Virus record (IMG/VR): IMGVR_UViG_3300049182_000044 | Span: 32,001-96,000 of that record | Reading direction: 5' to 3' (one strand) | From: a virus | Taxonomy: Duplodnaviria > Caudoviricetes | DNA: 64,000 nucleotides | In this document: positions 5,409 to 56,419 of the stretch, one piece after another | Layout of the letters: the number at the start of each line of letters is the position of its first letter | Position numbering within the stretch: the first letter of the stretch is position 1 | Notes under the pieces: generated by a model | Seen by the model: the letters and a program-made list of their open reading frames with translations, nothing else | The model's database searches: none | What the model was told of the DNA's origin: nothing | Translations under genes and position numbers: made by a program

Positions 5409-6550
5409 TTCACTATGCGATTGACGGAGCCGTACTTGCGGTGACGCAGAAGTTCATTGACGAGGACTCGGAACAGCCTTTGCTTGCCGCTCCTGGGTAT
5501 CCTCAAGTCAAACTGATTGATGCGGAAAAGAATCGCCTGAGTTCTACTATCGGTAGCCCGACCGCTATCCCAGGTGAATGGAGTGCCAATATCTCTATTC
5601 CGAATCTGGGAGTTGCTGACAAGACTGAGCTACGTTTGATCTGGCGTTTTCTCACCACCGATAACGAGCGCATTGTCGAGAAGGATGTGGTGGTTGTCGA
5701 GCCGCGTGTGGAGTCTCGCGTTTCGGATATCGTTGCGGTGTTCGGTGATCAGAAATTCGCACTGACGTTGCCCGTGTACTTCGGTGGCACAGATACGGCT
5801 GAGTATTATCTGTATCGTGACAACGATATGATTCTGAGTGCCCCAGGTAACCTGGCTGACACCGCGCTCTATCAACGCACTACAACGGTTGACCGTACCA
5901 ATTTCCTACTTCCTCTGAATGTGCCGAATCCTTCGCTTCAAGCCTATCTGGTACGTGTCGATGTGGTGCCATGTGGCGTCGGTCACAAGAAGACGTTCAC
6001 GTACAAGTTGTGGGCGGTGACTCCTCAAATCATGAAGGGCATGTCCTTCTTGGAGGACTTCCTGAATAAGGCAAAAATCGAGAACACGATCCCCGAATTG
6101 CAGTACACGGATGGCGACTTGATTAACTATCTCGAACGCGGTCTGAATCTGTTCAACATGGTAGGCTCTATGCCCACCGCCTTCACCGGCACGAACATGC
6201 AGGGTGTGCTGTTTGATGCATGGGTGACCTGTGCTTCGTACTATGCGCTGGGCGCTCAATTGATGGCTGAGGGCGCATTGGCATTCGATTTCAGTGGTCA
6301 AGGTATTTCGCTGAACGTTGATCGTACCCCGCAGCTTGACTCTGCGCTGGGGCGTATTGAGAGCATGATCGACAGCCGCATCGTCCCGCTCAAGAAAGCT
6401 CTGCAAACTCAGGGCGTTACCAGTGGTGACGGTTCTGTGGGTAAGACCACAATGCGTAATTCAGCTAATCTCGGAACACTCGGACTGACGAATGCTGCGA
6501 CAACTCGTATCCGCGGTGTGCAGAACACCTTCGTCGGCAAGAGGTGGTGA
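5405..6550 (+). CDS. Hypothetical protein, possible head/neck structural protein
   Basis: 381 aa ORF; beta-rich N-terminus and helical C-terminus; function inferred from context only. Confidence 0.6.
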   Translation: MIHYAIDGAVLAVTQKFIDEDSEQPLLAAPGYPQVKLIDAEKNRLSSTIGSPTAIPGEWSANISIPNLGVADKTELRLIWRFLTTDNERIVEKDVVVVEPRVESRVSDIVAVFGDQKFALTLPVYFGGTDTAEYYLYRDNDMILSAPGNLADTALYQRTTTVDRTNFLLPLNVPNPSLQAYLVRVDVVPCGVGHKKTFTYKLWAVTPQIMKGMSFLEDFLNKAKIENTIPELQYTDGDLINYLERGLNLFNMVGSMPTAFTGTNMQGVLFDAWVTCASYYALGAQLMAEGALAFDFSGQGISLNVDRTPQLDSALGRIESMIDSRIVPLKKALQTQGVTSGDGSVGKTTMRNSANLGTLGLTNAATTRIRGVQNTFVGKRW

Positions 6551-10884: not shown

Positions 10885-11679
10885 GTGAACGCTAAAGTCA
10901 TCGTTTCCCTGTCCGCTTCCAGCAACAACTTCCTGAACAACGACAATCATCTGAACGTCGCCAAGGTTCAGGAACTGAATGGCAAGATCAAGGAAGCTCT
11001 CAAGGAACTCCCGACCGTCAATGAAAAAGGCAAGGCAATCAAGCCGCCGAAGCCGCTCACCACTTACACGATCAAGCGTAAGGCCAAGATCGTCAAGTTC
11101 GACAGCGCGCTCAACAACGCTGGCAACCTGACATACCTGGCACGTCGCGCAATCCCGGTTAAGGAATGCAAGCGCCTGACCGAACGCGGTGCAGTTCGCA
11201 ACCTCGACATCCTGACCGTGTACGACAAGGAAGTCATCGGCGACAAGCTGTACAAGCAGTGCAAGGAAGCAATGGCGGCAATGAAGACCCACATGGGCCG
11301 TGCCGACAAGACCAAGGAATCGGTCAAGAAGGAAAAGCTGGTCATTCGTGATGCCAATAACAAGGAATTCGCTCGTGGCGTCGCTGCATTCAAGAAATTC
11401 CTGAAGGCAGCAGGCGTTGACCTGGGCAAGGACCTCGTTGAATCGTCCGGCGGCATGGGTGGCAAGGCTGTGCTGTTCCGCCTCGACAAAGAGACGGTTG
11501 TCAGCATCGGTCGTTCCGACACCTCGAAGTTCAAGGCTGCAAAGAAGGCAGCTGAAGAAGCGGGCGACGAAGGCGACGACGAAGATGTGAAGCCGGCCAA
11601 GAACGTCAAGAAGGTCAAGAAAGACGGCGACAAGAAGAAGGTCAAGAAGAACGGCCTGAAGAAGAAGTCCAAGAAGTAA
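10885..11679 (+). CDS. Lys-rich hypothetical protein with KVIVSLSA N-terminal motif
   Basis: 264 aa; acidic then highly basic C-terminal tail. Confidence 0.8.
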   Translation: MNAKVIVSLSASSNNFLNNDNHLNVAKVQELNGKIKEALKELPTVNEKGKAIKPPKPLTTYTIKRKAKIVKFDSALNNAGNLTYLARRAIPVKECKRLTERGAVRNLDILTVYDKEVIGDKLYKQCKEAMAAMKTHMGRADKTKESVKKEKLVIRDANNKEFARGVAAFKKFLKAAGVDLGKDLVESSGGMGGKAVLFRLDKETVVSIGRSDTSKFKAAKKAAEEAGDEGDDEDVKPAKNVKKVKKDGDKKKVKKNGLKKKSKK

Positions 11680-47105: not shown

Positions 47106-47708
47106 ATGCTTAAATGGCTAGATAAGATCCTTGGACGGAATAACGAGGAAGGTTCACTGAAAAGTATCACGTTCGATCCAGTTGAATTGATTCAGTTCCG
47201 CGTTGATCGTCGTGTGTTGACAGGCGATCCTGAAGTGACAGTCTACGTCCCGCAATATCGTACTAGGGTCTTTTACGAGTCTAACACACGCCTCAAGGTA
47301 GCCGAAGGTGGATACTTCAGGCGTGCGGTGTTGACCTCTCAACCACCTGAAAACAAGTGGACACCTTGGCAGGACTTCCAAGCGACAGATGATTGCGGTT
47401 GCCCGCTGCATTTCTCGCTCACTGCATACAGTGCAACGCGCACGGTGAAGACCGAAAACTGTAAAAACGTGGTACAGGCGTTGCGGCCAATTCGCATCAT
47501 CGAAACAGAAGGTTCGATGGGTATGGATAAGAACACCTGGGTCGGGAACATCTTGCGCAACGAAACACGTAAGGTGTACTGCGGCAGCGGTGACGGCGTG
47601 GAAGAAGAGTTCTATGTCGTGCGTACCCTTGGTGGCATGAAAGAGATGTGGGTGGCTGTCTCCGCTACTACTCGCGCCGAAGACGGTGTGATCGAGTATC
47701 GGTATTAG
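47106..47708 (+). CDS. Hypothetical protein
   Basis: Start MLKWLDK preferred over 46956; 200 aa. Confidence 0.65.
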   Translation: MLKWLDKILGRNNEEGSLKSITFDPVELIQFRVDRRVLTGDPEVTVYVPQYRTRVFYESNTRLKVAEGGYFRRAVLTSQPPENKWTPWQDFQATDDCGCPLHFSLTAYSATRTVKTENCKNVVQALRPIRIIETEGSMGMDKNTWVGNILRNETRKVYCGSGDGVEEEFYVVRTLGGMKEMWVAVSATTRAEDGVIEYRY

Positions 47709-47747: not shown

Positions 47748-47823
47748 GGGGCGTTAACTCAGTTGGTAGAGTAGCGGACTCTTAATCCGTTTGTCGTAAG
47801 TTCGATCCTTACACGCCCTACCA
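47748..47823 (+). tRNA. tRNA-Lys(CTT)
   Basis: 76-nt cloverleaf, gcgga-ct-CTT-aa-tccgt, TTCGATC loop, encoded CCA. Confidence 0.95.
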
Positions 47824-47881
47824 AAGTTTCCATAGTAGTGCAGATGCGCGAAAGCGAGTTCTTACTTCTGCATTACTCACC

Positions 47882-47957
47882 GGGTCGTTAGCTCAGTCGG
47901 TAGAGCAGCGGACTTTTAATCCGTTGGTCGCGTGTTCGAGTCACGCACGGCCTACCA
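47882..47957 (+). tRNA. tRNA-Lys(TTT)
   Basis: 76-nt cloverleaf, gcgga-ct-TTT-aa-tccgt, encoded CCA. Confidence 0.95.
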
Positions 47958-47979
47958 AGTTTGTCGTAGTAAAGAGTTG

Positions 47980-48101
47980 TAACTGCCATGTGGGTGGGTA
48001 CCTGCATGTTGTCGTAAGAATGGCCAAAAAGCCGGACCTCAATTTGTGCGAGTCGAAAGGCTCTCACCAGTGTAGACAGTCCTTACAGGGGATCGCAGTT
48101 A
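47980..48101 (+). ncRNA. Structured inter-tRNA element
   Basis: taactgc/gcagtta closing stem; gagtc-GAAA-ggctc hairpin at 48050-48063. Confidence 0.35.
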
Positions 48102-48111
48102 GCTGTTACGT

Positions 48112-48187
48112 GGGGCGTTAGCTCAGTTGGGAGAGCAGCGAACTTTTAATCCGTTGGTCGCTGGTTCAAACCCAGCACGCCCTACCA
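48112..48187 (+). tRNA. tRNA-Lys(TTT), variant with A30.C40 anticodon-stem mismatch
   Basis: 76-nt cloverleaf, gcgaa-ct-TTT-aa-tccgt, TTCAAAC loop, encoded CCA. Confidence 0.9.
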
Positions 48188-50689: not shown

Positions 50690-51181
50690 ATGGGAGCAGC
50701 AGTAATTCAGCTGAAGTGCGCACGTTGCAAAGCGAAGTTTGAAAAGAAACTAGCTGAGTACACGTATCAATTGCGCAAGGCAGGCGTTTTAGACAAGCCA
50801 TTCTTTTGCAGCAGGGCATGCGGTCAAGCGTATTCAGGCGAGACGTTTCAAGCGTTCACCGATATTCGCGCAATCGCTAAAAGCCTCCGCAATCGAGAGT
50901 GGCCTTGATATGAGAAGTTAGACCGTTATCTAAAATCAACGGGGCTTACGTACCGATTCGAGTTCTTCTTCAAGAAGCACCGATTCGTGTACGACTTGGC
51001 GATAAAGGAACTGCGGTTGATATTCGAGTTCGATGAAGCGTATCACTACGATGAAACCGTCAGGCTTGTAGACAGAGCGAAGGACAAGCTCGCGAAGTCG
51101 AAAGGCTACACTGTGATTCGTGTGCCTTGTTCCAACGGTGCGGTTCTGTCACCGAAACTGATAAAGAAGCATTTGAAGTAG
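50690..51181 (+). pseudogene. Zn-finger + DUF559/Vsr-like endonuclease interrupted by one in-frame TGA (50906-50908)
   Basis: CARC..CSRAC..NREWP*YEKLDRYL...YRFEF...VYDLAI...IFEFDEAYH...KDKLAKSKGYTVIRV in one frame. Confidence 0.7.
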
Positions 51182-51189
51182 TACAGAAT

Positions 51190-51545
51190 TTATGGTTGTG
51201 TGCGTAGCGTAATCTACGCGAGACGTTTGCGTGAAGGCATGGCGGACGGGAGTTCGATTCTCCCCACCTCCACCACCAGCACTTTGAACACCCGGTGATG
51301 GCCGGGAGTTTGACCATGTAGGGTAACGGCCCCATAGCAGCCGCTACAGGACCAGTTGCGATACAACTGCAAAGCGCTGTTGATGGGGGTGACCTGGTTT
51401 CGACGGCGTGAGATAGCAAGAACTACAACTCAGCAGGCGATCGCTGACTCTTCGGAGTGAATCGAAGCAAAAATAGTAAATGCAAACGACTCGCATTTCC
51501 TGCAAGCTGCAAACGCCTAATTAAGCGTTTCACTTCAGGCTAAGT
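51190..51545 (+). ncRNA. ssrA: Circularly permuted (two-piece) tmRNA; outer ends approximate
   Basis: Acceptor piece ending GGGAG-TTCGATT-CTCCC-CACCTCC-A-CCA (51275) lies upstream of GGGGGTGACCTGGTTTCGAC (51385); G3.U70 pair; tag ANDSHFLQAANA* at 51482-51520 with H5 hairpin. Confidence 0.9.
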
Positions 51546-51686
51546 GACTACGGGGTCTGTTGACATAGCGCTACGGCGCGCCGTCTTCGTGTACGTAGTT
51601 AGTCCGGCCACTCCACCTTTCGCCGATAATGACGCGACTGCGCGTGGGTGTCTTAGTCAGCGCGTAAGCGCACCGAAGCCGGACTA
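51546..51686 (+). ncRNA. Structured RNA domains downstream of the tmRNA tag
   Basis: gactacg/cgtagtt and tagtccggc/gccggacta stems. Confidence 0.5.
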
Positions 51687-56385: not shown

Positions 56386-56419
56386 ACTGTAAAGCGTAGT
56401 CAACAATAACAAACAATAA

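Follow-up and report, generated by a model that had tools for sequence, protein, structure and literature searches.

Does a jumbo phage from soil encode its own circularly permuted, two-piece tmRNA, and if so, to which class does the RNA belong, how did the phage come by it and what would it do there? tmRNA releases ribosomes that have stalled. Phages are known to carry genes for it, yet these are, to our knowledge, almost unstudied, and we know of no case in which the gain of a phage from such an RNA has been demonstrated. The locus considered here lies in a window of 64,000 nucleotides, the whole stretch of DNA that was analysed, which represents bases 32001–96000 of a 281,566-bp IMG/VR virus record that is 100% complete according to CheckV. 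The sole sequencing run found to contain the stretch is labelled soil metagenome, with all sampled words contiguous, and may be the source sample itself; no RNA runs are among the runs listed as containing it.

The tmRNA gene and its surroundings in the phage genome

The sequence-only reading had recognised a circularly permuted two-piece tmRNA at this position and had named ARAGORN and the permuted Rfam models as the way to check it; the two methods agree with it and with each other. ARAGORN calls a permuted tmRNA (tmRNA*) at 51183–51611 on the + strand, and Rfam model RF04321 (tmRNA_permuted) matches 51221–51520 over its full length (model positions 1–213) with 98.5 bits, where the gathering score is 47 (E = 6e-18 over the whole window), which is far above chance level. 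The gene order is that of a permuted tmRNA, with the T arm and the CCA-ending acceptor strand upstream of the 5′ acceptor strand and an intervening segment between the two. As had been anticipated for a gene of this layout, the one-piece model RF00023 is silent in the same search, giving no match at its gathering threshold in the window. The outer limits of the whole gene, 51183–51611 as called by ARAGORN, are approximate, the corresponding span being 51159–51565 by the beta-type model RF01850 and 51221–51520 by RF04321. The right-hand limit first given, 51545, is probably slightly short, as a predicted pseudoknot extends to about 51559 and the alignment with the beta model of Rfam ends at 51565.

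The gene is located about 83 kb inside the 281-kb contig, with phage helicase, DNA polymerase and structural genes flanking it. PHROG matches comprise a 1924-aa helicase, the DNA polymerase, a Dda-like helicase and baseplate-like proteins, nearly all long ORFs in the window lie on the + strand, and GC content is even (49–54% across the window, about 51% on the whole). Minus-strand ORFs overlapping the tmRNA locus look spurious. In its DNA polymerase the phage shares about 44% identity with PaBG (Pseudomonas), Yoloswag (Erwinia) and AD1 (Dickeya), which are jumbo phages of about 260 kb, and the genomes of these three contain no tmRNA gene, neither one-piece nor permuted. The tmRNA gene would thus have been acquired in the lineage of the present phage, making this a lineage-specific acquisition of a beta-like two-piece tmRNA by a soil jumbo phage whose cultured relatives do without one. 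A protein-family search of the 281-kb genome returned neither SmpB nor SspB nor a tyrosine integrase. Host SmpB would therefore be needed, and the phage would likewise depend on the AlaRS and RNase P of its host.

Three tRNA-Lys genes (anticodons CUU, UUU and UUU; 47748–48187, + strand) and the tmRNA gene are the only tRNA-type genes in the 281-kb genome and sit together in one RNA-rich, ORF-poor island. A tRNA set restricted to lysine is suggestive of replacement of host tRNA-Lys cut by anticodon nucleases, and an RNA island of this make-up fits the idea of a phage that guards translation against host attack. The motif ACTGTAAA, which may be a promoter or a regulatory element of the phage, occurs in 11 copies, all on the + strand, where 1.5 are expected; its sites within the window run from 10811 to 60008 and are often found just 5′ of genes. 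The nearest copy upstream of the tmRNA gene (47458–47465, + strand), a candidate phage promoter, just precedes the tRNA-Lys genes, and the next copy comes only at 56386–56393. With no copy between 47458 and 56386, the tRNAs and the tmRNA may be made as one transcript that is then processed. A scan for sigma-70-like promoters and intrinsic terminators found none at the gene itself. Directly upstream, a short ORF (50987–51181) stops 2 nt short of the ARAGORN call. Its match to DUF559 (Vsr-like endonuclease) is confined to the middle of the domain, and it has an in-frame stop upstream; it may be a decayed homing-type endonuclease.

Sequence searches with the locus and its surroundings yielded no relative. 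Comparison with GenBank phages by blastn gave no match, and in a megablast of 22 kb the tRNA-Lys genes alone were matched. The neighbouring Dda-like helicase has no relative in IMG/VR, an exact 26-mer of the 5′ domain has no match in that collection, and no second copy of the tmRNA sequence was found in the viral or metagenome collections searched.

Architecture of the two pieces and the spacer

The acceptor piece closes with the 3′ tRNA-like domain (51237–51275, + strand, as drawn by ARAGORN), which contains the T arm (51248–51264, + strand; 5-bp stem GGGAG/CUCCC, loop UUCGAUU) followed by the acceptor 3′ strand CACCUCC, the discriminator A and an encoded CCA (51265–51275, + strand), with which the piece ends. 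The coding piece opens with the 5′ tRNA-like domain (51385–51411, + strand), consisting of GGGGGUG with G3, the D-loop analogue CCUGGUUUCGA and a strand of helix P2a. Both borders noted at the outset, the CCA end at 51275 and the GGGGGTG 5′ end at 51385, prove exact to the base, and the G3·U70 pairing noted with them is found in the 7-bp acceptor stem drawn by ARAGORN. This stem (GGGGGUG/CACCUCC, 7 pairs), with G3·U70, discriminator A and CCA, presents the alanine identity set. It retains 7 of 7 pairs in eight relatives, with compensatory changes at positions 5 and 6 and an invariant G3·U, and the T stem retains 5 of 5 pairs in all eight.

Helix P2, the acceptor-piece strands of which lie at 51226–51244 (+ strand; ARAGORN bracket string and relatives), has two parts. 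In P2a, 51237–51244 pairs with 51404–51411, and 6 of 6 pairs are kept in six of the eight relatives with compensatory changes that include several double changes; P2b, in which UUUGC (51226–51230) pairs with GCAAG (51416–51420), is seen in this sequence only. Pairs maintained through such changes in the relatives point to selection for base pairing. The outer part of P2 in the Rfam models RF04321 and RF01850 is not formed here. Plain minimum-free-energy folding did not recover the tmRNA fold, and P2 emerged no better than from shuffled sequences, whether the precursor was folded whole or its two pieces were cofolded; the basis of the P2 assignment is ARAGORN, Rfam and the covariation seen in relatives. 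A 6-bp hairpin (GCGUAG/CUACGC; 51202–51219, + strand) is predicted at the 5′ end of the acceptor piece or upstream of it, and by eye the relatives have a hairpin at a similar place, although automatic alignment did not match them up.

Downstream of the 5′ domain, Rfam alignments and relatives place a hairpin at the PK1 position (51431–51446, + strand; CAGC/GCUG, loop AGGCGAUC). Its loop contains AGGCGA, which is conserved in beta-type tmRNAs, and of PK1 the hairpin alone was recovered. It is followed by a 12-nt UUCG-tetraloop hairpin (51447–51458, + strand), an insertion with respect to both the Rfam consensus and the relatives. The tag frame (51482–51520, + strand) has a GCA resume codon after UAAAU, 12 codons in all (ANDSHFLQAANA) and a UAA stop. 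Folding predicts a P5 hairpin (AAACGC/GCGUUU; 51511–51530, + strand) with the stop codon in its loop, a design also present in one relative (L258, CAACGC/GCGUUG) and not kept across the whole family of related tags described below. The 3′ flank of the tag (51531–51559, + strand) can be read as an H-type pseudoknot, in which stem 1 is CACUU/AAGUG and loop CAGGC would pair with GUCUG at 51555–51559; this prediction is a reading of the one sequence. A pairing of AGGCG in the PK1-position loop with CGCCU at the tag end, proposed by RNAalifold, was dropped, AGGCG being conserved also in beta-type tmRNAs with other tag ends.

Between the two pieces lies an intervening segment of 109 nt (51276–51384, + strand; delimited by folding and relatives) that, by analogy, would be removed on maturation. 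Its closing stem joins 51277–51286 with 51370–51379 through 9 of 10 pairs and leaves five unpaired nucleotides (UUGAU) before G1. The spacer on its own folds to -40.1 kcal/mol (z = -2.86), a stability attained by none of 200 shuffles, and in all eight aligned relatives it is likewise stem-closed, with the stem ending 4–5 nt before G1. An encoded CCA, a closing stem, 4–5 unpaired nucleotides and G1 thus make up a precursor design common to the relatives, one that should define the processing of such genes. The possibility that the spacer serves as a slot for a small gene was rejected, as the 109 nt contain no plausible ORF.

Class, origin and known two-piece tmRNAs

That phage tmRNAs are of the one-piece kind, the premise from which the locus had been judged unusual, is outdated: in a survey of 18,146 phage genomes, 53 of 133 unique tmRNAs were two-piece by ARAGORN, mostly in aquatic phages, and the Methylophilales phage Melnitz carries a two-piece ssrA (Buchholz et al. 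2022, PMC9004378). Phage-encoded two-piece tmRNAs are therefore a published class, of which this is a new member. The tmRNAs of Melnitz and the pelagimyophages resemble the present one in being permuted ssrA genes with a tRNA-like domain and a tag, carried by lytic phages that have no smpB (PMC9004378). They differ in being of alphaproteobacterial type, located behind a glutamine riboswitch in marine T4-like myophages of 140 kb (PMC9004378), whereas the tmRNA described here is beta-like, has a tag ending in -ANA and belongs to a 281-kb soil phage distantly related to PaBG; unlike at Melnitz-type loci, Rfam finds no riboswitch in the window. One-piece, unpermuted tmRNAs are carried by mycobacteriophages of the Bxz1 group and by Bacillus phage G, and phage DS6A has an RNA, also unpermuted, that consists of a tRNA-like domain only, with no tag (PMC4131195).

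Our own T-arm scan of IMG/VR gave at least 95 permuted tmRNA loci among the matches listed. Eighteen of these were run through Rfam, whereby 16 passed the beta cut-off (92–158 bits) and two matched the merged permuted model only; for phage-borne copies other than the present one, beta-model scores of 89–158 bits were obtained. Many of the beta-type permuted tmRNAs in IMG/VR are no more than a few hundred bases away from the end of their contig (for example L127, L142, L130, L165 and L168). Such a location fits host ssrA at provirus borders, so these contig-end tmRNAs may be host genes, and counts of 'phage tmRNAs' taken from such collections would be inflated accordingly.

Among the clade-specific models, RF01850 (beta) fits best, aligning end to end (model positions 1–331, 51159–51565) with 71.2 bits, below its cut-off of 84 bits. 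RF01849 (alpha; 32.8 bits, cut-off 50) and RF01851 (cyanobacterial; 34.9 bits, cut-off 70) give partial matches to the universal core only. The RNA is thus beta-like, with RF01850 as best-fitting clade model, and no certified member of the beta family. Its gene order is that of the beta two-piece tmRNA, as far as the papers citing the original work describe it (Sharkady and Williams 2004, as cited in PMC9004378 and PMC11915505), and the two have in common the D-loop analogue UGGUUUCGAC, the AGGCGA loop at the PK1 position and a tag starting ANDxxF. Differences from RF01850 are the 109-nt spacer, where the model skips 13, the extra UUCG hairpin and the missing outer P2. The tag too is different, with 12 residues ending in -ANA against 10 residues ending in -LAA in the sampled beta chromosomal copies. 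The Caulobacter two-piece tmRNA has the same permuted layout, but it is chromosomal and of the alpha type, the model of which gives the 32.8 bits mentioned above. In the summaries given by later papers, it is the one case for which processing of the precursor into two base-paired RNAs has been shown (Keiler, Shapiro and Williams 2000, as cited in PMC9004378 and PMC11915505).

With respect to origin, capture from a host with such a gene and independent permutation had both been put forward. The latter is unlikely, given that the RNA aligns end to end with RF01850 and that its architecture is common to many phage-borne copies; capture from a host may have taken place, though no donor was found in a scan of bacterial contigs with a T-arm pattern that is universal across phyla, the matches listed being non-discriminating. 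Permuted tmRNAs are present in 4 of 121 sampled genomes of the order of Duganella. Two clear chromosomal ones in that order (tags ANDERFALAA and ANDENFALAA) are alike to the phage RNA in the universal core, with little likeness past the T arm.

The -ANA tag family and the readings of the RNA

The tag ANDSHFLQAANA ends in -ANA and lacks the hydrophobic xAA end. That end is found in 94 of 95 IMG/VR permuted tmRNAs (among the matches listed) and in 87 of 99 bacterial one-piece tmRNAs, and is thus typical of the tmRNA family and not strictly defining; in these comparison sets (95 + 99), a single locus, L069, ends in -ANA. A pattern search then yielded, with the present RNA, nine distinct permuted tmRNAs with a 12-residue tag of the form A-N-[D/E]-x-x-[F/Y]-[L/K]-x-[A/T]-A-N-A. 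Their tags are ANDANFKVAANA, ANDAQFLVAANA, ANDEHFLIAANA, ANDSTYLIAANA and ANESTYLMTANA in IMG/VR, ANDSFYLKAANA and ANDAQFKVAANA in metagenome contigs, and ANDDTYLLAANA in a bacterial MAG contig (L069), where the coding piece comes directly after a standard tmRNA. The loci concerned are L255, L257, L258, L256, L254, L268/L280 and L269, together with the bacterial contig L069. The last codons vary synonymously among the members (GCU/GCA/GCC/GCG, then AAC/AAU, then GCC/GCU/GCG), a variation that is partly built into the search, since the pattern required an A-N-A end, and AACGCCUAA is identical in seven of the nine.

At least three members lie by phage terminase genes, two of them immediately adjacent (L257, tmRNA at 5904–6249, and L256, at about 100–380) and one about 2 kb from terL (L258, at 1139–1497), with portal, primase or DnaB genes nearby. 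These three are real phages, and in protein content they are unrelated to the phage described here; no protein similarity was found between it and the other tmRNA-bearing loci. The relatives share tag length, tag pattern and a stem-closed spacer with the present tmRNA, the ones checked being contigs of 30–56 kb with spacers of 25–99 nt. With L258, L255 and L257, the alignment of the coding piece extends over about 140 nt and shows about 68% identity. In 401 sampled genomes of the order to which G001 belongs, the -ANA pattern is absent, as is a canonical ...AA control in 81 genomes, the resume context in the pattern being too specific, so that this absence carries no information on the tags of hosts. 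The -ANA tag class and the stem-closed spacer kept in relatives are what is modestly new here.

We consider it probable, and say so with good confidence, that the gene is a functional, phage-encoded, circularly permuted ssrA, processed and acting in ribosome rescue as set out in the following. Support comes from the complete tRNA-like domain and tag, the full-length RF04321 match and the covarying pairings. On the other side of the balance are the clade-model scores below cut-off, the non-xAA tag, the missing outer P2, the failure of energy folding to recover P2, and the negative scan for sigma-70-like promoters and intrinsic terminators at the gene. By the proposed mechanism, the RNA would be transcribed as one precursor, possibly within the tRNA-rich island that follows ACTGTAAA at 47458. 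The spacer stem would bring the encoded CCA end (51275) beside G1 (51385), upon which host RNase P would cleave at G1, host 3′-end enzymes would trim to CCA and the spacer would be released. The acceptor and coding pieces would then be held together by the 7-bp acceptor stem (P1) and helix P2. Charging with alanine by host AlaRS would proceed through G3·U70, after which host SmpB and EF-Tu would bring the RNA to ribosomes stalled on broken messages; translation would resume at GCA, and the nascent chain would be tagged with ANDSHFLQAANA. For the processing and charging steps we draw on established two-piece tmRNA biology, as summarised for Caulobacter in the citing literature (Keiler et al. 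2000, as cited in PMC11915505). What the phage probably gains is ribosome rescue that would go on during shut-off of RNA synthesis in the host or during attack on the translation RNAs of the host.

A variant of this reading keeps the RNA and the rescue and changes the fate of the tagged protein. ANDSHFLQAANA resembles a canonical ...AA tag with an N-A extension. E. coli ClpX recognises a terminal L-A-A together with the free carboxylate. Hypothetically, the two residues added after ...AA could hide or alter the ClpXP signal, by which rescued proteins would be spared or rerouted to another protease and the -ANA RNAs would constitute a phage-specific functional subfamily. We hold this to be unlikely on balance. 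The recurrence of the 12-residue design (nine distinct permuted tmRNAs, three or more of which lie by terminase genes), the synonymous variation at the tag end and the rarity of -ANA in the comparison sets speak for it; yet an -ANA end may still be degraded, the search itself demanded A-N-A, and the exact identity of AACGCCUAA in seven members could reflect common descent or RNA constraint instead of selection on the peptide. More doubtful again is the broader proposition that tags in -A-A-N-A mark a phage-specific branch of beta-like two-piece tmRNAs by which rescue is obtained with ClpXP-type destruction avoided or redirected. If true, the tmRNA would be a tool for seizing host translation quality control and not a mere spare part. 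Comparison of -ANA with -LAA tags offers a simple, testable handle on phage rescue with or without proteolysis.

Three further explanations were considered. By the first, the phage RNA is a decoy that would take SmpB, AlaRS or stalled ribosomes away from the tmRNA of the host and thereby inhibit host trans-translation, as has been proposed for the tRNA-like-domain-only RNA of mycobacteriophage DS6A. A molecule with a tRNA-like domain only inhibits tmRNA, perhaps by SmpB titration (PMC4131195, PMC11915505), and a decoy would agree with a phage that brings no SmpB. A pure decoy would not need a tag, however, and the full tag frame, resume context and stop are kept here and in all relatives, which leaves this reading very improbable. 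Hardly better placed is the view that the locus is a dead remnant of a gene captured from a host, or else host DNA misjoined to a phage contig: the sub-cut-off clade scores and the truncated DUF559-type endonuclease ORF directly upstream, a hint of past mobile-DNA activity, are offset by the intactness of every defining element, by compensatory changes across relatives, by a position some 83 kb inside the 281-kb contig with phage genes on both sides and even GC, and by the lack of any other copy in the viral or metagenome collections searched. The least credible proposal, in our estimate, is that the acceptor piece is no part of a working RNA but the attP by which a temperate phage would integrate into the ssrA of its host. 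Integration into tmRNA genes is common (PMC4383910), and the -ANA coding piece of L069 shares the T arm of the standard tmRNA that it follows; against this, the 281-kb phage has no tyrosine integrase and its nearest cultured relatives are lytic jumbo phages.

Several loci met in these searches are of unusual layout. In L069 (bacterium UBP17 UBA6191; 1803–2456), the -ANA coding piece begins 88 nt after a standard tmRNA and would share the T arm of that gene, an arrangement that could represent prophage integration into ssrA; the 4.5 kb examined showed no recognisable integrase or phage gene nearby. L254 (about 10990–11240; the same sequence is present in L264) has a coding piece with tag ANDSTYLIAANA and a long stem-closed spacer, and its upstream partner CAGCCCC would give G3-C and not G3·U; no normal T arm is visible, and ARAGORN makes no call. 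Four bacterial genomes, L043 (Duganella MAG), L015 (Herminiimonas MAG), L075 (Noviherbaspirillum) and L090, each carry a normal one-piece tmRNA scoring above 200 bits together with a second tmRNA. In L043, L015 and L075 the second one is a beta-type permuted tmRNA confirmed by Rfam, with the odd tags ANESQFLAVGT, ANDANYLVQVYG and a tag of 29 residues, and in L090 it is called by ARAGORN alone, with a 30-residue tag. These second tmRNAs are probably carried by mobile elements.
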